Source of the DNA: Candidatus Micrarchaeota archaeon
Lineage (GTDB): Archaea > Micrarchaeota > Micrarchaeia > Anstonellales > Anstonellaceae
Reading direction: 5' to 3'
Length of the DNA stretch: 64,000 nucleotides
NCBI GenBank assembly: GCA_964392435.1
Contig: CAYMOY010000001.1
Span: 77,259-141,258, forward strand
Shown piece by piece: positions 2,768-41,668 of the stretch (its first letter is position 1; every line of letters starts with the position of its first letter). Under the pieces are notes generated by a model, which ran no database searches, was not told the origin of the DNA, and worked only from the letters and a program-made list of their open reading frames with translations. Position numbers and translations under genes: made by a program.

Positions 2768-5035
2768 ATGGTCATCTTTGCCACTAGAAAAACCGAAAAC
2801 TTGCCATTTCAGCCCCATGAGGCTTTGGGCCCAAACCCATTTCTGGGTCCAGCCTACTCAGAAACCATCAAAAACGAGCTGAACGCGCTTCGCCCCAACT
2901 TCTGCTCTGACAAAATGGCGGAAAACCTTGCAAAAAAAGTTCCAGAAGGCGGTCTGGACAAGTTTTTGGGCGAAATGAAAAGCCTGGTCTTGGTTATAGG
3001 GCAGAAAACAACAGACGATTCGGCGTTGATTTCACTTGGCAATCTTCTTTCTGATTCAAACTTCAAGCCCGAGTATCTTGCAACTGTCATGCGCATCAAT
3101 AAGGATAAAACCGGAAAAGAAGTATCTTGGAACATCGATGCCATCGCCAATCTCATTTCCAACTCGAATTTTAAGCCCGAATGCTTCGAAATGGCTGAAC
3201 AGCTTACGAAGAACGCAGGCAAGGATGAGACTTACCATGTTTTTCATGCCCTATCCGCTTTCATCTCCGACAACGGTTCCAGCACTGAAAACCTGAAATT
3301 ATTCGAAAAAGCGTTCGATTGGGCAATAAACAAGACAAATGAAAAAGATTCATTCCTGTGCGTCCGTTCTGCGGTTTCTCTTATTTCCGCACACGAATTC
3401 AAGCCAGAACATCTGGATTTATTCGTGAAAATCGCAGATTTGATAATCAGGAACACGCAGGGGGGCGACACTGGCGAAACCCAGTGGGCATTGATAAATC
3501 TTTCCGGAACGCTCTCCGAACCCAAATTCAATCCGGATTATCTTGAGCCAATGGCAGCTATTCTGAAGGGGAGGGGCAGGGCAGAAACATCCGGCATCCT
3601 AAAGGCGGTTTCAACAATGTTTTCCCATCCCGGTTTTGAGCCGGAAAAGCACAGGTTTTTTGAAAATCCCATGTCCATAAGCCTGATCCTAAACCAGTCA
3701 GGCAAAGAGGCGGTCTTTGCAATGGCCTCCTTCTTCGATCCCCGCATATCCGAGGACATCAGGAATAATTATCTTGCCGACCCACTGAAAAACATCCAGC
3801 TGCTTATGCCGCGCATTGTCGCCTATGGAGTGGCAACCGATCTTGGCGAGCCGATTGATTCTTTGCATGATGATGGACAGAACAGAAAGAAATATGTGGA
3901 CTCTCTGAATCTCTCGCAGGTTCTCGGGCTTCTAATGTCCGACCCTAACTTATTTTACACATCTTCCAACAATATGCTATTCGACCGCCTGAACAAGCTT
4001 CTCGGGGAAAATGGCGCCTCCCTGTCCCAATTCTTGCAAGAAAACCAGCTTATCGACACGAATCCAGACCTGGTCCGCAACCTGTTTTTCAGGGCAATGA
4101 ACTACGGCAGGCTTCACGGGGGGCCGGATTCCATATTGGATGGTGCTGGGTTCAAGCAGCTGGTGCCGCTTATCTTCGAGCCCATAAAATCCGGAAAATT
4201 CGATGCCAACTATTTCTATCTTCTCGGCAACGGGCTCGAGGCCATAAAGTCGCTTGGACTGGCAAAAGATTTGCTAAAGGCAATAGGCGAAACCGCCTCG
4301 GGCGACCAAAAATTCAACAGAGCCCGCGAGTTTGTTCGCAAGTACCTGGAAGGCACGCTTGAAGATTCTTCAAAAGCATTTTACAATCCCTCGCTTTTCT
4401 GCTCAAAAGACGGCAAGCAAGTGCTTGTCCAGGTTTTCGACAAAGAGGACAGCGGCAATGGCGAAGGCGGGAATTTTAAGGAGGCGATGCGGGACGCGCA
4501 GCTGCTGTGCGGGAAGCCCAAAAAAGGCGAGTATGGCGAACTAATATATGAAAATGGCAATAGGCGGATAATCCTCATCTGCCAAGAGGAAGGCACAAAC
4601 AGGCAATTTTTGGAAAACAGGCTAAAAACCGACTCGAACATGATACTGACTTTCAGGGGGCATAGCTACAGCCTGAATGACAACATTCCACCCGAGATTT
4701 TTGGTAATGTGGACGCGAATATCCTGTTTGTCATGGGGAGCTGCGGCAGCTCTGGGGCAGTGCCTAATTATATGGAAAAAAATCCCAAAATCAATTTTTC
4801 ATTCGTCTCAAACGAGAGCACTGGCAGGGCGGCCGTGACCCAGAGGGGATTAATCCCTGCGTTGCTCGACCAGAAAAGCAGCGGCAAGAAATATGCCGAT
4901 GTCTTGAAAAGCCGTGAGAAAGAGATCAAGGCGGGGCGCGGCGACCTAGAGACAATCAAAACCTACGATGACGGGCAATGGCTTTTGGATTATGTTCTGC
5001 GCAATGCCCCATCCACCTTAGCTTCACAATTATAA
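2768..5035 (+). CDS. Large hypothetical protein: about 6 helical repeats plus caspase-like (clan CD) C-terminal domain
   Basis: 755-aa ORF; repeated (N/E)FKPE motif; TFRGHSY and FVMGSCGSSG; start codon uncertain. Confidence 0.7.
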   Translation: MVIFATRKTENLPFQPHEALGPNPFLGPAYSETIKNELNALRPNFCSDKMAENLAKKVPEGGLDKFLGEMKSLVLVIGQKTTDDSALISLGNLLSDSNFKPEYLATVMRINKDKTGKEVSWNIDAIANLISNSNFKPECFEMAEQLTKNAGKDETYHVFHALSAFISDNGSSTENLKLFEKAFDWAINKTNEKDSFLCVRSAVSLISAHEFKPEHLDLFVKIADLIIRNTQGGDTGETQWALINLSGTLSEPKFNPDYLEPMAAILKGRGRAETSGILKAVSTMFSHPGFEPEKHRFFENPMSISLILNQSGKEAVFAMASFFDPRISEDIRNNYLADPLKNIQLLMPRIVAYGVATDLGEPIDSLHDDGQNRKKYVDSLNLSQVLGLLMSDPNLFYTSSNNMLFDRLNKLLGENGASLSQFLQENQLIDTNPDLVRNLFFRAMNYGRLHGGPDSILDGAGFKQLVPLIFEPIKSGKFDANYFYLLGNGLEAIKSLGLAKDLLKAIGETASGDQKFNRAREFVRKYLEGTLEDSSKAFYNPSLFCSKDGKQVLVQVFDKEDSGNGEGGNFKEAMRDAQLLCGKPKKGEYGELIYENGNRRIILICQEEGTNRQFLENRLKTDSNMILTFRGHSYSLNDNIPPEIFGNVDANILFVMGSCGSSGAVPNYMEKNPKINFSFVSNESTGRAAVTQRGLIPALLDQKSSGKKYADVLKSREKEIKAGRGDLETIKTYDDGQWLLDYVLRNAPSTLASQL

Positions 5036-5058: not shown

Positions 5059-5478
5059 ATGGAGATACGCAAGATGCGCGCAGGGGATTTGCCTGCGCTT
5101 TCGCGCATGGCATCAAAGATTTTCCAAGAGCCCTACCCAAAAATGGTACTAGCGTGGCTAACTGATTCCTTCAAATCCCGGGTGGAGGGCGCCTGCCTTG
5201 TGGCAGAGGACAATGGGAAGATGGCAGGCGCAATATTCGGGAACAAGCTGCTTACCACGCGCCCAGGTACGGCAAGAATAACCGAATTTTTCGTGGCAGG
5301 CGATTATCGTGGCAAGGGGGCGGGCAAGGCGCTTTTCTCATCCTGCATGTCCGCAATGAAGAAAAATGGCATGAAAAGCGTGTCCTTGCTGGTAAGGGAG
5401 AAAAACAAGCGCGCGCTTTCGCTTTACAAAAAAGCAGGCTTCAAGCCGTTCAGGCTCATGCTTTTGAGGAGATTTTGA
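5059..5478 (+). CDS. GNAT family N-acetyltransferase
   Basis: MEIRKMRAGDL; acetyl-CoA motif FFVAGDYRGKGAGKAL; NKRALSLYKKAGF; start refined from ORF track. Confidence 0.9.
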   Translation: MEIRKMRAGDLPALSRMASKIFQEPYPKMVLAWLTDSFKSRVEGACLVAEDNGKMAGAIFGNKLLTTRPGTARITEFFVAGDYRGKGAGKALFSSCMSAMKKNGMKSVSLLVREKNKRALSLYKKAGFKPFRLMLLRRF

Positions 5479-6563
5479 TGGCAAGCTCGAACATATTCAG
5501 GTCTTCAAAAGGGGAGAACAGGATATTCCGCGACGAGTCGGCCCTTCTTCCCGACTTTTTGCCAGATGAGCTTCCTGGCAGGGAACGCGAGATACGCGAG
5601 CTTGTCTATTGCCTTCAGCCTGCGGCGGAAAAGCGCCAGCCCGAGCACGCGCTTCTCATCGGAACGCCTGGCACAGGCAAGACATCCTCCGCGCGCTTTG
5701 TGCTCAAACAGCTCTCGGAGTACAGCCAGCGCCCTCTTCCCGTCTACATCAACTGCTGGGAGTATTCTAGCCGCTTTGCAATATTCTCCTTCCTGGCAGC
5801 CTCGCTTGGCGAGCCCATGCCCCGCCGAGGCATTGCGGCTGATGAGGTGTTTTCCCGCATTGTGGAAATAGCGAAAAAAGAGGAGCGGATACCCATTTTG
5901 GTGCTGGACGAGGCAGACAGGCTGGAGTCATCCGAAGAAGGCGTGCAGGTGCTCTACGACTTGTGCCGCGCAAACGAAATACACTCGCTCAAAACCGGCG
6001 TGATTGCGATAACAAACGATGAAGAATTCCACACCAGGCTGGATGCCCGCGTGCGCTCCTCATTCGTGCAGCACACGCTGAATTTCCCGGCATACACTGT
6101 CCCGCAGCTCAAAGAAATAGTCTCGCGGCGCGCCAAGCTTGCCTTTGCCCCGGATGTGCTTGATGCCGAAGTCGTCCCCCTCTGCGCGGCAATAGCATTC
6201 AAGAACGGCGGGGACGCGCGCGTTGCCCTCTCGCTGCTCTTGTCCGCTGGCAAGGCTGCCGAGCGGGAAAATGCGCCTCGCGTGTTGGTCTCCCATGTGC
6301 GGCAGATGGAAGGGCAGGCGCTGGGGGCATCCACAGTGAAAGCAGAGCGCAAGATTGCCGACCTTGACGAGATAGACCAAAAAATAGTGGAGGAGGCAAA
6401 AGGCGGCATAGAGTCAGGCCAGCTCTATTCAAGGCTAAAGAAATTCGTGCAGGAGCGCGCGCTTCGCAACAGAATCGAGCGCCTTGAGAAAAACGGGATA
6501 CTTGAGGTTCAAAGCAAAACGCTAGGGAAGGGCAGGACAAGGCTCATCAAGGTGAAAGGGTAA
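5475..6563 (+). CDS. cdc6: Orc1/Cdc6 replication initiator
   Basis: LPGRERE, Walker A GTPGTGKT, Walker B LVLDEAD, GDARVAL, C-terminal winged helix. Confidence 0.92.
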   Translation: MMASSNIFRSSKGENRIFRDESALLPDFLPDELPGREREIRELVYCLQPAAEKRQPEHALLIGTPGTGKTSSARFVLKQLSEYSQRPLPVYINCWEYSSRFAIFSFLAASLGEPMPRRGIAADEVFSRIVEIAKKEERIPILVLDEADRLESSEEGVQVLYDLCRANEIHSLKTGVIAITNDEEFHTRLDARVRSSFVQHTLNFPAYTVPQLKEIVSRRAKLAFAPDVLDAEVVPLCAAIAFKNGGDARVALSLLLSAGKAAERENAPRVLVSHVRQMEGQALGASTVKAERKIADLDEIDQKIVEEAKGGIESGQLYSRLKKFVQERALRNRIERLEKNGILEVQSKTLGKGRTRLIKVKG

Positions 6564-15339: not shown

Positions 15340-16782
15340 TTAGCTGTGGCTTCCGCCTTTGCTATCTTCCCACATCCTGCGGATAAGGGAGCGCAGCTCC
15401 TCGCGCTTGCGTTCAAACTCGTTTTCCTCTTCTTGGGATAGTTTGACTTTTTCCACAAAAGATGGGGATTCGCCATCCGCCGCTCCGGAAATCCGCCCAG
15501 GTGCTGTTCCTTCTGGCTTTATTATCTCGAATTCCTTTATCAGCACCCTGACCCTCTGCTCAAGCAATGACTGTTCTCGCTTCAGCTCAGCAAGCAGGAA
15601 AGATGCCTTTTGCAGCTCGTTTTTGGGGATTCCTGCCTGGCCGCCTTCCTTGATTATCTCAAGGGCGGCCATCTGCGAACTTATAACCCGGCCAATCTCC
15701 TTTTGCTTGGAAAGCAGCGCCTCGTTTGCGCGGCTGACCTCATCTGCTATGTCAACATATTCGTTTTTCAGCTGCTCTAGCGTTTCAAGGCTCTTTCCCT
15801 GCTTTTGCGCGGTTGCCTCAAAGGCGGCCTGCTGCTTTTTGACTGCCTGCAAGGCTTCCTGGAGCTGGGACGCCACCGCGGTCTTTTGCCTTTTTGCATC
15901 CTCCTCCATCTTGGCAAGCTCCGCAAGCTGCCTCTTTCCAATTGAGCCTTCCTTGCCGGTGATTGATGCGAACTGGCCGCGCAGCTGCTCAATTTTCTGC
16001 TCAAGCTCCTTTTGTTCTTCCGAAACGGCTTCTATAGCCCCTGCAAGCTCTGTTTTCAGGTCGTCTATTTTCTCAAGCTGGTCCTTCATTTCATCTATGT
16101 CTTTCTGATATTCGCCGCTTTCCACATTTCGGCGCATCTGTTCGGATCTTGCTTCAAATGCCCCGAACAGGTCCTCGTTTTCGGAAAGCTGCTCTTTCAG
16201 GGCGGATTCGAATTTCTCCAAAAGCTCAATCTCGCCCATGAGGTCTCTTGCACCCTTTTTTCCAGCCCCCTGCGACAGCCCGCTCTTTGAGCCGAATGTC
16301 TCGACTTTTTTCTTGAGCTTTTCCAGCTTCCTGGCAGCCTGGCTGACCGCTTCTTCCTGTTCTTCTGAAAGCCGGGCAATCTCATCTTTGAGCCTCTGGA
16401 TGTCCTGCGGCGCCATAGCGGCCGCATTCTGGGCGCTTGCTATCTCGGCTTGCATCTCTGAGAGGTCCTGCTCGCCTTTTTCCACCTTGGAGAGCAGCAT
16501 TTCCAGCTCCTGCTTGGTCTGGCCCGCCTTTGCCTGTAGCTTTTCGCTTTTTTTAGCCAGATATTCCGGGCTTTGGGCCTTCCAGGCAAGATAAACCTTA
16601 GTCAGCTTGTATTCCACATTGATGAGCCCTTCCTCCTCTAGCACATGGGCCCAGTCCTCAACTGTGCGCAGAGGCAGGGAAAGCTCGCGGGCAGCCTGCC
16701 CCATCTCAATCTTTCCCCGCTCCCGCAAAAGCTTTATCAACTGGTCCACTCCAGTCGAAATAAGAAGATCATCAAGACCCAT
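15340..16782 (-). CDS. N-terminal winged-helix plus long coiled-coil protein
   Basis: GQAARELSLPLRTVEDWAHVLEEEGLI followed by about 350 aa of E/K/Q-rich heptads. Confidence 0.8.
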   Translation of the reverse strand: MGLDDLLISTGVDQLIKLLRERGKIEMGQAARELSLPLRTVEDWAHVLEEEGLINVEYKLTKVYLAWKAQSPEYLAKKSEKLQAKAGQTKQELEMLLSKVEKGEQDLSEMQAEIASAQNAAAMAPQDIQRLKDEIARLSEEQEEAVSQAARKLEKLKKKVETFGSKSGLSQGAGKKGARDLMGEIELLEKFESALKEQLSENEDLFGAFEARSEQMRRNVESGEYQKDIDEMKDQLEKIDDLKTELAGAIEAVSEEQKELEQKIEQLRGQFASITGKEGSIGKRQLAELAKMEEDAKRQKTAVASQLQEALQAVKKQQAAFEATAQKQGKSLETLEQLKNEYVDIADEVSRANEALLSKQKEIGRVISSQMAALEIIKEGGQAGIPKNELQKASFLLAELKREQSLLEQRVRVLIKEFEIIKPEGTAPGRISGAADGESPSFVEKVKLSQEEENEFERKREELRSLIRRMWEDSKGGSHS

Positions 16783-16881
16783 ATGTTTTCCGATGCAAAT
16801 CCAATCCTTATAAAGATTTGTGCGGAAGTCCTATTCTGCAGCAAGGCGATAAATCCGCCTTTTTTCCGCGCGGGGTTTTCC

Positions 16882-18093
16882 ATGGCAGGCTCAGATTTTG
16901 ACATCAAGCTGAAACGCGAGGCGCAGACCTCCCTCCAGGTTTTCAAGGACCAGTCATTGCTGCGCAGGAAATTCGGCGAGGAAGCGGTTAAGCTGTACAA
17001 CCTTATCGACAGCGGCAAAACTGCCCAAGAAATGATTGCACAGCTTGGGATGTCTGAGGAGCAGTTCATAGGCATCCTGGAATTCATGAACAACAATGCA
17101 ATGGTCAGCGTCATTCCTTCGGATTCAGCATCTCCAGAACCAAGGGGAGGCAGCCAGCTGCCATCGGATGCCAAAGGGCCCGCCGGGGCTGGAGAGGACA
17201 ACGAGCCGGATGAGAAGATGGACTCGGATTCGCTCTCCCCTCTGGAAAAGATACTCAACGACAATTACGGGGCGCTGGGGGTCCGCGTATACGGTTTGAT
17301 AGATGGGGAGAAAACCGCCGAGGAAATACTTCGGGAAACCGGAGTATCCGAGGCAAAGCTGGTTGAGATTCTCGAGTTCATGGACGAGCAGGGCATCATC
17401 AAACTCGAAAAGCCAAGTGAGAAAAGCGGCGCGAAAGATGGTTCGGATGATGCGGAAGATGGTTCGGACGCTAAAAAGGACGAGGAGGCTGCCCGCGAGC
17501 CGCGCTTCAAGCCCATGATAGAGGAAGAACCTGAGGAAAAGCCTTTCGAGCTCCCCAAGATCCCCGAAAAGCCCCAGCAACCTGAGAAGAAAAAGGAGGA
17601 AGAGCCGGATGAGGACATAATAATGGTCGATGTTCCCGCCATGGCAAAGCTCACACTTATGCAAAAGGCAGTAATTTTGACCGAGCTTTCCACCAAGTTC
17701 GGCAAAGGCGCGCGTGAGCTCGTGGATTTGGTCGACGGAAATCGGGATTTCGTTGAGCTTTCGCTTTCAACAAGGATGTCGTTTTTCGACATTGATTCGA
17801 TTATGGCTTATTTCGGGAAGAAAGGATTCTTCACTTTCCGTGTGCTTTCCAGGGAAGAGATAAAGAAGAAATATGGCGAAGATGGTTTTGCAATATACAA
17901 GCGTTATGGCAGGGATGGGCTGCTCCTGTATGAAATGATAGGCAAAGAAGCCTCGTTGAAGGACATAATAGCAAAAAGCAAGGTGGATGCCGACAGGGCA
18001 ATAGAGATATTCGTGTTCATCCACAAGGTTCTTGGGCTTGACATCCCGCTCGACCGAGACATCATCTATCGGCAGCTGGGATTGAAAAAATGA
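16882..18093 (+). CDS. Protein with four winged-helix-like repeats and acidic linkers
   Basis: Repeats (K/Y)xG..(Y)xLIDGxKTAxE...ILEFM; start refined to MAGSDFDIK. Confidence 0.8.
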   Translation: MAGSDFDIKLKREAQTSLQVFKDQSLLRRKFGEEAVKLYNLIDSGKTAQEMIAQLGMSEEQFIGILEFMNNNAMVSVIPSDSASPEPRGGSQLPSDAKGPAGAGEDNEPDEKMDSDSLSPLEKILNDNYGALGVRVYGLIDGEKTAEEILRETGVSEAKLVEILEFMDEQGIIKLEKPSEKSGAKDGSDDAEDGSDAKKDEEAAREPRFKPMIEEEPEEKPFELPKIPEKPQQPEKKKEEEPDEDIIMVDVPAMAKLTLMQKAVILTELSTKFGKGARELVDLVDGNRDFVELSLSTRMSFFDIDSIMAYFGKKGFFTFRVLSREEIKKKYGEDGFAIYKRYGRDGLLLYEMIGKEASLKDIIAKSKVDADRAIEIFVFIHKVLGLDIPLDRDIIYRQLGLKK

Positions 18094-23877: not shown

Positions 23878-23975
23878 GCAATGGATTGCGGGATATAGCA
23901 TTTTAAACAATCCCGCAGCATTCACAGTCGTGGGGCAGACTGCCCTATAGCTCTTGCTTGGAAGGGGGTTTTCAT

Positions 23976-25490
23976 ATGGTGGAACAAAAGAAGCGTCCTG
24001 CTGCCCGAGACGGCACAATCGACTCTTATGTCTATGACAATGAAGGCATACAGGTGCTTGCAAAAATCACTGCCAAGAGCGGCGATTACGTCCCCTTATA
24101 CGAGGTCAACGTCCGCGAGCTTTCCGAGGGCACGCGTTTGGTCCTAAACCAGCTCAAAGGGGAACTTATCACCACGGTCAAGCTGGACATAACCGATATA
24201 ATGGACCCGAAAAAGCGCGATGATGTGCGCAAGAAATTCGAGGTCCGAGCCAATTTCCTTCTGGGCAAGCATTTTCCCACGCTTTCAGAAGCTGACAAGA
24301 AGGTGCTCACCGCATACCTGCTGCAGAATTCTCTTGGCTTAGGCGAGATAGAATCCTTGATGCATGACAATAATCTTGAGGAGGTGGCCATCAATTCCGC
24401 CTCAGAGCCGATTTGGGTCTACCACAAGAAGCACGGCTGGTGCAAAACCAACATACAGCTCAAAAGCGAGGAATCCATATATGACATATCCGCCATGATA
24501 GGCAGGAGGATAGGCAAGCAGATAAACGTTCTCAATCCGGTCATGGATGCGCACCTTGCAACCGGCGACCGTGTCAACGCCACGCTGTATCCGGTCTCTT
24601 CCTTTGGCAACACAATAACCATCAGAAAATTCTCCCGCAACCCCTGGACAATACCCTATCTTATCGAGCTCAACTGTATCTCTTCGCAGGTTGCCGGCCT
24701 CATTTGGCTTTGCATGCAAAACGAGATGTCGCTTTTGGTCTCAGGAGGCACAGGCTCCGGAAAAACATCGTTCCTCAACGCAATGGCGTGCCTCATTCCG
24801 CCCAACCAGCGCGTGATTTCCATAGAGGACACCCGGGAGCTGACCCTGCCCAACTTCCTGCAATGGGTGCCCATGGTCACCCGCGAGCCGAACGCCGAGG
24901 GCAAGGGCGAGATAACCATGCTTGACCTGCTGGTCAATTCTCTGCGCATGAGGCCCGACCGGATAATATTGGGTGAGGTGCGCAAGCAGCGCGAGGCGGA
25001 AATACTCTTCGAGGCGATGCACACCGGGCATTCGGTTTATGCCACGCTGCACGCTGACAATGCGGCGGAGACAATCACCAGGCTGACCACCCCGCCCATT
25101 TCCATGCCGCGAGAGACACTCTCTGCGCTGGCTGGCATTGTAGTCCAGTTCAGGCACCGCAGGCTCAATGTGCGCCGCACTCTTGAATTTGCAGAGGTGC
25201 AAAAAGGAGGGGACATAAACACCCTTTATCGCTGGGATGTGAAAAGCGACAGGATAAACGAGGTCGGAAAGATGATCACACTGTCCCAAACGCTTTCACT
25301 TTACTCCGGCCTGACCCAAAAGGAAATAGACCAGGATGTTTCTGACAAGGCTAAGATATTTTCCTGGATGGTCAAGCGCGGCTTGAAAAGCGTGGACACC
25401 GTTGGCACCATAGTTTCCCAATACTATGTCAACCCGGATGACATACTTTCCCTGGCTACCAAAAATGCAGAATGGCATGGCCAGGAATGA
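23976..25490 (+). CDS. Type IV pilus assembly ATPase (TadA/VirB11 family)
   Basis: GGTGSGKT, SIEDTREL, LRMRPDRIILGEVR, TGHSVYATLHA. Confidence 0.95.
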   Translation: MVEQKKRPAARDGTIDSYVYDNEGIQVLAKITAKSGDYVPLYEVNVRELSEGTRLVLNQLKGELITTVKLDITDIMDPKKRDDVRKKFEVRANFLLGKHFPTLSEADKKVLTAYLLQNSLGLGEIESLMHDNNLEEVAINSASEPIWVYHKKHGWCKTNIQLKSEESIYDISAMIGRRIGKQINVLNPVMDAHLATGDRVNATLYPVSSFGNTITIRKFSRNPWTIPYLIELNCISSQVAGLIWLCMQNEMSLLVSGGTGSGKTSFLNAMACLIPPNQRVISIEDTRELTLPNFLQWVPMVTREPNAEGKGEITMLDLLVNSLRMRPDRIILGEVRKQREAEILFEAMHTGHSVYATLHADNAAETITRLTTPPISMPRETLSALAGIVVQFRHRRLNVRRTLEFAEVQKGGDINTLYRWDVKSDRINEVGKMITLSQTLSLYSGLTQKEIDQDVSDKAKIFSWMVKRGLKSVDTVGTIVSQYYVNPDDILSLATKNAEWHGQE

Positions 25491-25565: not shown

Positions 25566-28500
25566 GTGAAGGAGAATATTCGCATGGCGGCCAATGACAT
25601 TTTCCCCAGTTTCGTCGAATGCAGCCGGCAGGCTCGTGAAATCGAGCGCAAACTGCTGCCAGTCAAGCCTTCGCAGATTTCAGGCAAGCTCCGCCCGGAA
25701 GGCTCCACACAGATATTTCCCCGCGAGTTTGAGGAATACACCGTTGCTTACCTTGTTTCCGAGGCGCAAAAAGTAGAGCGCAAGCTTTTCGCCGCCAATT
25801 ACCAATCGGCTCCAAATGTCTCCGTGGCGCAAGCTTCTTCCAAGGTTGAGCTTGGGCAGAAAGTGGCAGATGAGCTGGGCCAGTTTGCCTCAGGGGCAGC
25901 CCAACAGCCTGGCTATCAAACCACGCCCAAGGTGCCAGGCATTCCCGCCAAAAAAGATGCTATCTGGGGCGGGGCAGGTGCTCAGGCTCAGCCAGAGGGG
26001 CCATCCTCGGGGGATGAAAAAATTTCCCCGCCAGCATTGCCATACCAGCAGGGCATTCCATCCGAGGTCCGCATTGCCAAGGAAGCCGAACTTGAGGCCG
26101 AGGCGAAGATGGCAAACGAGTCCGCCCATCACCCTGCGCAATTTGGGGGATATGGAAGCGGCGAGCCTGGCGATGCTTCGCGCAAGCTGCGCTTACAGGA
26201 CCAGCCCTCCTCGTCCGGTCTGATGTCCTCTTCAAAGCTTTCTCCAAGGCTCAGGGCTATAATCGAGGAGAAGCTGAGGAAAGAGGAACAAGCCGCCCAG
26301 GATGCGCCAGTGGAAATAGAAAAAGCATCTTATGAAAAAGAGGAGCAAGAAGAAAAGAATGAAGAGCCTCCCGTGCTCTCCTCGCGAGAGAGGCTGTTGC
26401 GGAAATTGCAGCGCGAAAGGCAGATTAGGGAGGGCGAGGCTCTGCTTCAAGGGCAGGAAAGGCAGCCTGCAAAAGTGCTTCCAAGAAAACTGCAAGAGCC
26501 TGCCGCTGGAGATGAAGAACTGCCTGAGCAAGAAGAGCAGGGGCAGCAGCCAGAGCAAGAGGGGCGGGAAGACTTGCAAAGGCCCCCTGAGGATGAGGAG
26601 GAGATTCAGGAGCAGGAAAGGCAGCCTGCCAGAGTGCTTCCAAGAAAACTGCAAGAGCCTGCCGCTGGAGATGAAGAACTGCCTGAGCAAGAAGAGCAGG
26701 GGCAGCAGCCAGAGCAAGAGGGGCGGGAAAACCAGCAAGAAGAGCAGGAGGTTTCAGGGCAGGCAGAAGGGGCGGAAGAAGAAACCCCCTCGCAAGTGGA
26801 GCAGCCGCTCGAGGTTGCCTCTGCAAAGGCAAGTGCCCCTGCCAAAAGCTCTATTTTGCAAAAGCAGCCTTTGGCATATGGGCAGGTGGCGCAAAAGGGC
26901 GCGTCCGCGCTCCCACCATCATCCCTAAGTTCTGGCAGAATACTCATAAAGCCCATTTTTGCCGGGCAGGAAAACGAGCAGGATGAAAACCAGGGGGCGC
27001 GGGACGATGGGGCGGAAAAAAGGATGGAGCGCATCTCACGCATAGTGCGGGAGCTGTCCCCGGACAGGTACAAGGCGCAGGCAATAGCGAAAAAACCAGA
27101 CGCCTCATCCGAAAAAGGCGATGCAAAGCCTGGCGAACCAGCTGCGCCTTTGCGGATGGAAAAGCGGCCAACCGCAAAACCGGTCCTGAAGAAAAAAGCC
27201 AAAATTCAAGTGAATGAGCAGCAGCCTTGGGAAGAGGCGCAAGAAGAACAGCAGGAGCCCCCATCAGATGCGGAAGGGCCGCAGGGGCAGGAAAACCCGC
27301 AAGAGGAGGCGCAGGAAGAGTCCGAGGTACGGCAAAGGCTCGGCTGGAACCAGCCTCAAGCGAAAAAAAAGCTGGCGCCAAAAGTTTCTGGGAAAAGACA
27401 GGGCGAATTGGCTAATGCGAAGAGAAAGAATTTGCCTGCTGGGGCGCAACAGCAGAAGAAGGCGGGAAAAGCGCAAAAGTCTTTGCCTGCGGCAAAGGAG
27501 CCTTCTGGGGGGAAAATAAGGTCCCAAGACCAGGGCGGTTTCCCTAAGAAGCAGCAGGTGGCTTTGCAAAAGCAGTCAAAATCGCCCCAAACCGCCCGGG
27601 CAAGGCAAGCGGCATCGCCCTCCAAAGAAGTTTTCCAATCCAAATCCCCTCCAATGCAATCAGCAAAGCGGCAGCTGCCACAGCCCCAAAAATCCGTGGC
27701 ATACGCACAACGCGGCACTCCTGTTCAATATCAGGATGAAAGACGCCCTGCCGCATCTTCGAGCCAACCATTGCCGTCCCGCCAAGTTGCGCCTGCTGCA
27801 AACAAGCCTCCAACCGTTTCTCGACCAAGCGTGGCTGCAAGTGCGCGACCAGTTTCACGGCTCTCGCCATATTCCGCGCCGCCTGCCAGGCCTGCCTCCG
27901 GTCCCTCCCTGGGGCGGCCCATCATGCGCCAGGTCCAAGCTCCAACAGCCTATCGCACTTCTCCCCAGCCAATTCCAAGGGCAGGATCCAGGCCGCGCAT
28001 TCTTCCGGGGGGTGCGCAACAGATGGCGCCACAGACATATCTGCCTCCAAGAAGAACGATAATCCGGCCGCAAGCTTTGGGGCAAGAATCTTTGGCTGTG
28101 GGGCAGCCAGAAGAGGATTCGCAACCTATGCGGGAAACTGGCGGATTGCCAAAAAGGCGCGCAGCATATCCGCAGCCTGGCAGTGGCGAGGCTCTGCTTC
28201 AAGGGCAGGAAAGGCAGCCTGCCAGAGTGCTTCCAAGAAAACTGCAAGAGCCTGCCGCTGGAGATGAAGAACTGCCTGAGCAAGAAGAGCAGGGGCAGCA
28301 GCCAGAGCAAGAGGGGCGGGAAAACCAGCAAGAAGAGCAGGAGGTTTCAGGGCAGGCAGAAGGGGCGGAAGAAGAAACCCCCTCGCAAGTGGAGCAGCCG
28401 CTCGAGGTTGCCTCTGCAAAGGCAAGGCTCAGCGCCATATCGCAGGTTTCGGGTCTCAAGCCCAGGAAAAACGTGCTTGACGAGCCGGTGCAAAAGACGC

Positions 28501-28967
28501 CTGAGCAGCTTGAGGAAGAAAAGCGCATTTCTCAAAAAGCGCAGGTGCTCTCGCAGATGGAGGGGCAAAAGCAGCACGAGATATCAGGTTCAGCTTCCCT
28601 TCCTTTGGAAGAGGAAGACTTGGAAGTGCCAAAGCCGCCGCCAGATGATTCCGAATCCGGGCAGCCGGATTACGATACTGCAAAATACGGGCTGCGGCGC
28701 AAGATGCAAGAGGATGACATCCGGGCGAAGACCAAGGAGGAGGTTGAGGCGATAATGGAGGGCTATGCAAAAGATAATCTTGTATGGCTCTATGAAATTT
28801 ATTCCATGGGCGGGATGCCCCGCGAGGACTTCCTGCAAAAAGTAAAGGAGAAAATGGCCGAGGAAAAAATCGCCCTGCCGCAAGTTGGGGGTGAGGAGCC
28901 ACCTCCGCCTTCCAATCCCGCCCTTGCTAATTTGGGCAAGGAAATAGACAAGAGATATAAAAAGTAG
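25566..28967 (+). CDS. Giant low-complexity Q/E/P/A-rich protein with internal repeats inside the pilus operon
   Basis: 1133-aa uninterrupted ORF; short folded-looking termini; start may be ATG at 25584. Confidence 0.8.
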   Translation: MKENIRMAANDIFPSFVECSRQAREIERKLLPVKPSQISGKLRPEGSTQIFPREFEEYTVAYLVSEAQKVERKLFAANYQSAPNVSVAQASSKVELGQKVADELGQFASGAAQQPGYQTTPKVPGIPAKKDAIWGGAGAQAQPEGPSSGDEKISPPALPYQQGIPSEVRIAKEAELEAEAKMANESAHHPAQFGGYGSGEPGDASRKLRLQDQPSSSGLMSSSKLSPRLRAIIEEKLRKEEQAAQDAPVEIEKASYEKEEQEEKNEEPPVLSSRERLLRKLQRERQIREGEALLQGQERQPAKVLPRKLQEPAAGDEELPEQEEQGQQPEQEGREDLQRPPEDEEEIQEQERQPARVLPRKLQEPAAGDEELPEQEEQGQQPEQEGRENQQEEQEVSGQAEGAEEETPSQVEQPLEVASAKASAPAKSSILQKQPLAYGQVAQKGASALPPSSLSSGRILIKPIFAGQENEQDENQGARDDGAEKRMERISRIVRELSPDRYKAQAIAKKPDASSEKGDAKPGEPAAPLRMEKRPTAKPVLKKKAKIQVNEQQPWEEAQEEQQEPPSDAEGPQGQENPQEEAQEESEVRQRLGWNQPQAKKKLAPKVSGKRQGELANAKRKNLPAGAQQQKKAGKAQKSLPAAKEPSGGKIRSQDQGGFPKKQQVALQKQSKSPQTARARQAASPSKEVFQSKSPPMQSAKRQLPQPQKSVAYAQRGTPVQYQDERRPAASSSQPLPSRQVAPAANKPPTVSRPSVAASARPVSRLSPYSAPPARPASGPSLGRPIMRQVQAPTAYRTSPQPIPRAGSRPRILPGGAQQMAPQTYLPPRRTIIRPQALGQESLAVGQPEEDSQPMRETGGLPKRRAAYPQPGSGEALLQGQERQPARVLPRKLQEPAAGDEELPEQEEQGQQPEQEGRENQQEEQEVSGQAEGAEEETPSQVEQPLEVASAKARLSAISQVSGLKPRKNVLDEPVQKTPEQLEEEKRISQKAQVLSQMEGQKQHEISGSASLPLEEEDLEVPKPPPDDSESGQPDYDTAKYGLRRKMQEDDIRAKTKEEVEAIMEGYAKDNLVWLYEIYSMGGMPREDFLQKVKEKMAEEKIALPQVGGEEPPPPSNPALANLGKEIDKRYKK
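26433..26570 (+). repeat. Intragenic repeat copy 1 (138 bp)
   Basis: Near-identical to 28185-28322; encodes GEALLQGQERQPAKVLPRKLQEPAAGDEELPEQEEQGQQPEQEGRE. Confidence 0.9.
26612..26833 (+). repeat. Intragenic repeat copy 2 (222 bp)
   Basis: Appears identical to 28205-28426 by manual comparison. Confidence 0.9.
28185..28426 (+). repeat. Intragenic repeat copy 3 (242 bp)
   Basis: 5' end matches copy 1; the remainder matches copy 2. Confidence 0.9.
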
Positions 28968-41515: not shown

Positions 41516-41668
41516 GCCCCTGTAGCTCAGGGGTAGAGCGCGTGCATGGTAGAACCCTTTTTCCGCCTCCAGGCTAATGCGGCGAAAAAAGCGTTCACGG
41601 AAAACCTGTTGGTTCCGCGATTGGCTCCATCAAGCACGAGGTCGAGGGTTCAATTCCCTCCGGGGGCT
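41516..41668 (+). tRNA. tRNA-Thr(GGU) with 81-nt intron at 37/38 (41552-41632)
   Basis: Acceptor GCCCCTG/CGGGGGC; anticodon stem CGTGC/GCACG; T-arm GAGGG-TTCAATT-CCCTC; BHB core ATGG/CCAT; U73; no CCA encoded. Confidence 0.93.

Follow-up and report, generated by a model that had tools for sequence, protein, structure and literature searches.

The window analysed here is a stretch of 64,000 nucleotides from a Candidatus Micrarchaeota archaeon (GenBank assembly GCA_964392435.1, contig CAYMOY010000001.1, positions 77,259 to 141,258 of the forward strand). Among its listed open reading frames (ORFs) is a gene at 2768..5035 on the positive strand, with an ATG start, that encodes a protein of 755 aa; the same 755-aa product also appears among the gene calls of an independent public contig, Logan SRR12133403. 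This protein belongs to a new uncharacterized family that is centred on DPANN archaea and defined by a 420-aa C-terminal module, in which a Cys, a His and an Arg at the strand ends of an alpha/beta domain are conserved. From the N-terminus onwards, the gene encodes 25 residues predicted to be disordered (2768..2842; predicted local distance difference test, pLDDT, below 50 for residues 1-25), approximately six helix-turn-helix repeats of 36-43 aa (aa ~60-330; 2945..3757), a conserved all-helical middle domain (aa 348-535; 3809..4372) and a C-terminal Rossmann-like alpha/beta domain (aa 536-750; 4373..5017). An earlier interpretation of the DNA (hereafter the sequence-only reading) had described helical repeats followed by a beta-strand with Gly-His and a beta-strand with Ser-Cys, which the AlphaFold2 helices and strand positions show to be correct as a description; the repeat motifs, TFRGHSY, FVMGSCG, the His632 codon (CAT, 4661-4663) and the Cys659 codon (TGC, 4742-4744) all lie where it had placed them.

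No Pfam match at E≤1, no PADLOC match and no sequence relative in the PDB were found for the 755-aa protein. A word-indexed homologue search returned one homologue, P0002, with 34% identity across residues 358-745, and a word-indexed search with a full-length alignment returned the query only, a result attributed to low-complexity N-terminal repeats filling the candidate list. With the C-terminal alignment as query, HMMER was run exhaustively against 1.84 billion cluster representatives and yielded a family of 129 clusters at E<1e-3, of which 91 remain at E<1e-30. The protein encoded in the window matches the module profile with 765 bits over profile positions 1-441 and carries the R-G-H-S, G-S-C-G-S and S/T-G loops that, together with a full-length profile match, define the family. 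Members range from 400 to 1,377 aa, with the common C-terminal module of ~420 aa located behind N-terminal regions of widely differing length, and neither Pfam nor NCBIfam provides an assignment for this module in any member (66 full-length members and 60 domain sequences searched). All named members are annotated as "hypothetical protein" and originate from Candidatus Anstonella stagnisolia, Anstonellales, other Micrarchaeota and Diapherotrites.

A scan of GTDB species-representative genomes with a closer alignment (A5) identified 21 loci, nearly all in metagenome-assembled genomes (MAGs) of Micrarchaeota or Iainarchaeum, with two genomes carrying two copies of the family gene. One member lies on a contig binned as Pseudomonadota (L021, JAZDOG010000040.1), while all other close relatives belong to DPANN archaea; its placement probably reflects a binning error, or otherwise a transfer. 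A distant branch of the family, at 14-20% identity, is bacterial and includes P0125 from an Omnitrophota MAG, P0094, whose gene adjoins those encoding GidA and Lhr, and P0116, which has a signal peptide and adjoins genes for OmpA and for a protein with a type IX secretion system (T9SS) tail. At the Bacteroidota-like locus of P0116, an unannotated 989-aa gene (L027, 4054-7023, positive strand) shares 23 nt with the beginning of the family gene, which suggests translational coupling of the two genes in the bacterial branch. Of the 82 full-length members, 75, including the protein described here, have no signal peptide or transmembrane segment, and a few have a clear signal-like N-terminus; the protein is most likely stand-alone and cytoplasmic.

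The full-length AlphaFold2 model, built from a 66-sequence alignment, has a mean pLDDT of 83 and a predicted template modelling score (pTM) of 0.76. Residues 24-530 are all helical, with the helix-turn-helix repeats located within residues 60-330, and residues 536-750 form the alpha/beta domain, which when modelled alone from 60 sequences reaches a pLDDT of 94.6 and a pTM of 0.91. The strands of this domain are b1 (551-557), a hairpin (592-595/599-604), 625-630, 651-656, 676-682 and a short strand at 730-732; b1, the hairpin and each later strand are followed by one or more helices. Strand 625-630 leads through Gly-His632 into a helix, strand 651-656 through Gly-Ser-Cys659-Gly into a helix, and strand 676-682 through an SNxSTG loop into further helices. 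All conserved motifs of the domain are thereby placed by the model at strand C-terminal ends, the edge at which doubly wound alpha/beta folds canonically have their active site. The middle domain is delimited by profile coverage, which spans positions ~7-433 in most members, by its conserved columns and by helices with a pLDDT of 85-95. It always occurs together with the alpha/beta domain, and its conserved polar residues are D364, H367, R373, S391, T398, S399, N401, R407, R442 and N488.

Conservation was counted over 82 full-length modules and compared with a broader domain alignment of 60 sequences that includes the bacterial branch (A4). The R630-G631-H632-S633 motif (4655..4666), located directly after strand 625-630, is kept at R630 in 80 of the 82 modules, at G631 and H632 in 77 each and at S633 in 73. 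The G657-S658-C659-G660-S661 motif (4736..4750), located between strand 651-656 and helix 661-671, forms a turn of the small-x-Cys-x-small type resembling a nucleophile elbow, with G657 present in 78/82, C659 in 80/82 and G660 in 74/82. Asp561 (codon 4448..4450), in the loop after strand b1, is retained in 71 members and may be a third active-site residue or a metal ligand. The third loop, S681-N-E-S-T-G686-R-A-A-V-T-Q692 (4808..4843), follows strand 676-682; it differs from the family consensus SNTSTGRGQVTN at three positions, the consensus residues G688 and N692 not being kept here, while G686 is found in 79/82. Cys659 and Gly686 are invariant across the 60-sequence alignment, bacterial branch included. 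As both His632 and Cys659 are conserved in homologues, the pair is not a chance occurrence.

The members that depart from this pattern are few. Two have no Cys: in P0055 the sequence becomes unrelated at that point, probably owing to a frameshift, and in P0090 the Arg, His and Cys are all lost together, as in pseudoenzymes. The three members with Asp in place of His632 all carry a His at position 635, one helical turn further on, as do 6 of the 77 members with an intact His632 (hypergeometric p ~0.001, a value to be read with the possibility that the three share one ancestor), suggesting that an imidazole is needed near position 632. At the same site the bacterial branch reads HRGHSYH. DPANN archaea have very small genomes in which a large share of genes is unannotated, and a large protein (600-1,400 aa) kept in many Micrarchaeota and Iainarchaeota, in some cases in two copies, is a testable candidate for a lineage-specific enzymatic function, given its invariant Cys/His/Arg pocket and the absence of relatives in Pfam, NCBIfam and the PDB.

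In Foldseek searches of the PDB, the domain model reached a best E-value of 6.7e-4, with Arf1, and the full-length model one of 0.086. The neighbours are G-domains (Arf, Sar and EngB), periplasmic binding proteins, HTPA and imine reductases (NAD(P) reductases), type II dehydroquinase and MTAN/PNP, all with template modelling (TM) scores of 0.5 or below and of 0.39 or below when normalised to the query; type II dehydroquinase was matched with a probability of 0.99 and a target-normalised TM score of 0.50. A viral structure library returned the same kind of generic folds. In these neighbours, such as type II dehydroquinase and Arf, the fold is a doubly wound parallel sheet that places consecutive strands side by side. 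Since His632 and Cys659 follow strands of consecutive beta-alpha-beta units in a fold of this class, the two residues are predicted to be adjacent in space.

The likeness to Ras/Arf-like G domains extends to the order of elements, b1-a1-b2/b3 hairpin-a2-b4-a3-b5-a4-b6-a5, and Arf1 is followed in the Foldseek results by an Asgard Arf, EngB and GIMAP. However, a P-loop (GxxxxGK[ST]) is missing after b1 of the domain, as are the DxxG and NKxD motifs, and with TM scores of 0.34-0.43 the resemblance is one of topology only. A GTPase assignment was rejected, as Walker A, DxxG and NKxD are not present in the alignment, the corresponding loops read FDKEDT, FMGE, RGHS, GSCGS and SNTSTGRG, and no Pfam GTPase family is matched. 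Flavodoxin- or Rossmann-like enzymes with a nucleophile elbow, namely class I glutamine amidotransferases, DJ-1/PfpI proteins and alpha/beta-hydrolases, share with the family a strand, a small-x-nucleophile-x-small turn (here G-S-C-G-S) and a helix, as well as a doubly wound parallel sheet with the active site at the strand C-termini. In these enzymes, however, the nucleophile comes before the His in sequence, and none of them was among the top Foldseek neighbours or the Pfam matches.

The concentration of conservation at strand ends (R630, H632, C659, G686 and D561) supports the reading we favour, to which we give an even chance, that of a new family of thiol enzymes with Cys659 as nucleophile and His632 as base. 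In this model, the strand-end loops Asp561, Arg630-Gly-His632-Ser, Gly-Ser-Cys659-Gly-Ser and Ser-Asn-x-Ser-Thr-Gly686 would form one pocket. Cys659, held at the small-x-Cys-x-small turn between a strand and the N-terminus of a helix, would act as the nucleophile in covalent thiol catalysis, with His632 at the neighbouring strand end serving as general base, while Arg630 and the Gly/Ser/Thr loops may bind the substrate or stabilise the oxyanion. The substrate would be an amide, peptide or (thio)ester bond, making the protein a hydrolase or transferase analogous to clan CD peptidases, with no demonstrable kinship to them. The conserved helical domain may function as a cap or substrate-binding element, and the variable repeat array as a surface on which a protein partner or substrate docks.

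Several observations weigh against a thiol enzyme. Searches of Pfam, NCBIfam and the PDB, together with Foldseek and hhalign comparisons, gave no match in sequence or structure to a characterised family of thiol enzymes. A pocket rich in Arg, Ser, Thr and Gly, together with the invariant arginines of the middle domain, would fit a phosphate- or nucleotide-binding site equally well, and the replacement of the His by Asp or Glu in four members, like the bacterial HRGHSYH, looks more like metal ligation than a catalytic base. The protein from the window also differs from the consensus in its third loop and is without the DHW motif that the family has after strand 1. A more far-reaching version of the thiol enzyme proposal would see the family as the founder of a new clan, cysteine peptidases or thiol hydrolases with a G-domain-like or flavodoxin-like scaffold and an origin separate from that of the caspases, largely confined to the genome-reduced, symbiotic DPANN lineages Micrarchaeota and Iainarchaeota, in which the repeat arrays would choose the protein targets, for instance for host interaction or control of the proteome; this is a tentative proposal, and one that we consider more doubtful than the catalytic assignment itself. 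Should the protein prove to be a peptidase, it would represent a new clan that reached the His-then-Cys geometry of caspases by convergent evolution on another scaffold.

The same residues may instead form a metal site, with His632, Cys659 and Asp561 ligating Zn or Fe, or a phosphate or nucleotide site built from the Arg and the Gly/Ser/Thr loops, in which case the protein would be a metallohydrolase or a phospho- or nucleotidyl-transfer enzyme. We regard this as rather unlikely, while granting it a real share of the probability. The Asp or Glu found at position 632 in four members and the HxxHxxH arrangement of the bacterial branch would suit metal binding; the GSCGSAGS and SNTSTGRG loops at helix N-termini, the invariant R373, R407, R442 and R630, and the nucleotide-binding character of the top structural neighbours (G-domains and NAD(P) reductases) would suit phosphate. 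However, the DPANN branch conserves one Cys and one His only, which are few for a metal site, and no family model is matched; the sequence likewise has no P-loop, no GxGxxG after b1, no CX5R and no other recognised nucleotide-binding or phosphatase signature. A metal- or nucleotide-dependent enzyme would still constitute a new domain family.

The sequence-only reading had assigned the His/Cys dyad to the clan CD proteases, and one part of this claim is upheld: a His and then a Cys, each directly after a hydrophobic strand (ILTFRG-H632 after 625-630 and ILFVMGS-C659 after 651-656), are conserved on consecutive strand ends of an alpha/beta domain located behind helical repeats. The caspase-hemoglobinase fold, a six-stranded 2-1-3-4-5-6 sheet in an alpha/beta/alpha sandwich, was not found. 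Among the top 50 PDB matches of Foldseek, for the full-length model and for the domain model with its pLDDT of 94.6 alike, there is no caspase, metacaspase, legumain, gingipain, separase, CPD or CHAT chain, while the PDB contains at least 188 distinct caspase-related sequences; the absence of this fold had been named in advance as the outcome that would overturn the assignment. In Pfam, no Peptidase_C14, C13, C11, C25, C50, C80 or CHAT match was obtained at E≤1 for the query or the 60 domain sequences. Legumain (6dhi) appeared in a PDB profile search at a non-significant E of 0.94, and hhalign of the domain profile with human caspase-3, whose query sequence agreed with PDB chains over residues 1-277, gave a probability of 0.3%. 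In both comparisons only a hydrophobic strand and the Cys are aligned ("ILFVMGSCGSS" with "LFIIQACRGT" and "IVFYVESCESGS"), which is a resemblance of motifs and no evidence of homology.

A true but very divergent clan CD peptidase, with a His632/Cys659 dyad regulated by the helical repeats, would explain several features of the family. The likeness to the clan (C14, C13, C25, C50, C11, the MARTX CPD C80 and CHAT) includes a conserved His before the Cys, consecutive beta-alpha units in a three-layer alpha/beta/alpha domain, and small residues around the Cys (SCGS, compared with DSCHSG and ESCESG); in TPR-CHAT proteins and separase, too, helical repeats precede the catalytic-type domain. The elements run b-a-b-a-b(His)-a-b(Cys)-a-b, an order compatible with the caspase core, the xGH[S] and SCGSxG motifs are similar to the metacaspase, legumain and separase motifs among the MEROPS clan CD signatures, and the non-significant legumain and caspase-3 alignments place their catalytic-Cys strands on the GSCGS strand. 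The signature dipeptides of clan CD, according to MEROPS descriptions, are His-Gly and Ala/small-Cys; the family has Gly-His-Ser and not His-Gly, although Ser-Cys-Gly does have a small residue before the Cys. Further differences are the His-Cys spacing of only 27 residues, an extra beta-hairpin that gives a G-domain-like strand layout, the obligatory 190-aa helical domain fused upstream, and the invariant Arg two residues before the His. With no detectable similarity to the clan in sequence or profile (no clan Pfam match in 60 members and the low hhalign probability) and best Foldseek neighbours that are G-domains and flavodoxin-like folds at TM ≤0.5, membership is not shown: the His-then-Cys order on consecutive strands is shared, but the fold and profile searches do not recover the clan, and we consider true kinship improbable. 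A literature search on DPANN, Micrarchaeota and caspase found no paper mentioning caspase in this context.

Two weak Pfam matches in other family members were considered and set aside. A Peptidase_C13 match in the 1297-aa metagenomic protein P0110 (E 0.0012, below cutoff) covers residues 246-364, far from the family alpha/beta domain at 1127-1292, and provides no link between the module and legumain; if the match is real, this protein combines a clan CD domain and the family alpha/beta domain. A DUF6981 match in P0112 (E 0.008, also below cutoff) was not reproduced in other members.

The N-terminal repeats share a loop motif, [SN]xF[KNE]P[ED], that is located at residues 90, 126, 165, 202, 245 and 281, a spacing of 36-43 aa, with the third unit (FISDNGSSTEN, at residue 165) being weak. 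Pairwise local alignment of the six units gives a mean score of 33.4 compared with 17.0 ± 0.9 in 500 shuffles (z ~17, inflated by the anchoring of the 38-aa units on the motif), and the region is modelled as all-helical with a pLDDT of 70-85. When the protein was aligned to itself with BLASTP, no off-diagonal repeat matches were obtained, such that the repeats are visible only in the motif-anchored comparison of units. Length and copy number of the repeat region differ among homologues, whose N-terminal regions measure from 0 to ~960 aa. The repeats of relatives (consensus F..NPE.F..IA...G) gather summed partial matches to the STI1/XPC-binding repeat family PF09280, and the family profile matches de novo designed helical-repeat proteins in the PDB. 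However, these are sums of ~20-aa fragments in which no single stretch passes the threshold, and the protein from the window has no Pfam match; the XPC-binding, HP1451_C and designed-repeat matches, consisting only of such short-fragment sums, were rejected as compositional.

The long and variable N-terminal arrays and the lack of an enzymatic family match would be compatible with a non-enzymatic scaffold or adaptor that acts through protein-protein interactions of its helical repeats, the conserved residues then maintaining a binding surface or the fold, and P0090 has been retained despite the loss of its Arg, His and Cys. The near-invariant Cys, His, Arg and Asp at Rossmann-like strand C-termini are nevertheless a canonical active-site signature, and their conservation reaches the bacterial branch at ~15-20% identity, making a purely structural role quite improbable.

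At its extreme N-terminus the protein begins MVIFA, resembling the MFIFQ-type start of approximately ten homologues, and the conservation of these first residues (query aa 1-6) supports the annotated start codon. Near-identical hydrophobic starts (MFIFQ, MFVFQ, MFLFQ and MIIFQ) are found in P0003, P0004, P0016, P0022, P0032, P0037, P0065, P0075 and P0085. A conserved extreme N-terminus on N-terminal regions that are otherwise variable might serve in processing, sorting or autoinhibition.

In the window, the gene is a lone one surrounded by housekeeping genes, as the sequence-only reading had noted; its neighbourhood was compared over 26 loci (the window, four loci from exact look-ups and the 21 GTDB loci, with all ORFs clustered). 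Upstream, at a distance of 40 bp, lies a divergent PHP-domain gene (1456-2727, negative strand). Downstream on the same strand is a GNAT acetyltransferase gene (called at 5074-5478), followed by Orc1/Cdc6 (5478-6563) and then by genes for histidyl-tRNA synthetase (HisRS), thioredoxin and ScpA/B-like proteins. Across the 26 loci only the family gene is common, with no neighbour present in more than three, and the window contains no second copy of it. Neighbours at other loci include genes for LysW-type lysine/arginine biosynthesis, Suf, aminoacyl-tRNA synthetases, NurA and Orc1. At the P0002 loci, an unannotated 542-aa gene lies divergently beside the family gene (L001, 6209-7837, and L002, 324-1952, both on the negative strand); the two genes are inserted together in a LysW-type lysine/arginine biosynthesis cluster, and the 542-aa neighbour does not recur elsewhere.

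A role in defence had been proposed for the protein by analogy with TPR-CHAT proteases. The analogy of an anti-virus protease comparable to TPR-CHAT/Csx29 or other sensor-protease systems is architectural, consisting of helical repeats followed by a His/Cys domain, and such a function is highly improbable: no CHAT (PF12770) or TPR Pfam match, no PADLOC match and no conserved neighbour across the 26 loci were found, and the flanking genes are of the housekeeping kind (aminoacyl-tRNA synthetases, Suf, lysine/arginine biosynthesis, Orc1 and similar). A defence island or multi-gene system was rejected on the same PADLOC and neighbourhood results, and the proposal that the protein is ligand-gated is unsupported speculation. 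The "beta-strand-GH ... beta-strand-SC" pattern read from raw sequence can thus mark a real conserved site and yet imply neither caspase homology nor a defence function.

Elsewhere, the window has an archaeal character, probably that of a Micrarchaeota-like DPANN genome judging by where the family occurs, and also carries SMC, ScpA/B-like ORFs and an ADP-forming acetyl-CoA synthetase. An upstream ORF of 297 aa (566-1459, positive strand), which adjoins the PHP-domain gene, has no Pfam or PADLOC match; owing to its His-rich strand-end motifs (CFGQHGKS and VFAHFGTYHVGIHY), it is another unannotated enzyme-like protein. Further ORFs with no Pfam match at E≤1e-5 are located at 25566-28967 (positive strand, 1133 aa), 16645-18093 (positive strand, 482 aa) and 15340-16782 (negative strand, 480 aa), the first of which comes after a gene encoding a T2SSE-type secretion/pilus ATPase (23958-25490). 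An Rfam tRNA match of 153 nt at 41516-41668 (positive strand, 50.7 bits), not called by ARAGORN, is most likely an intron-containing archaeal tRNA.

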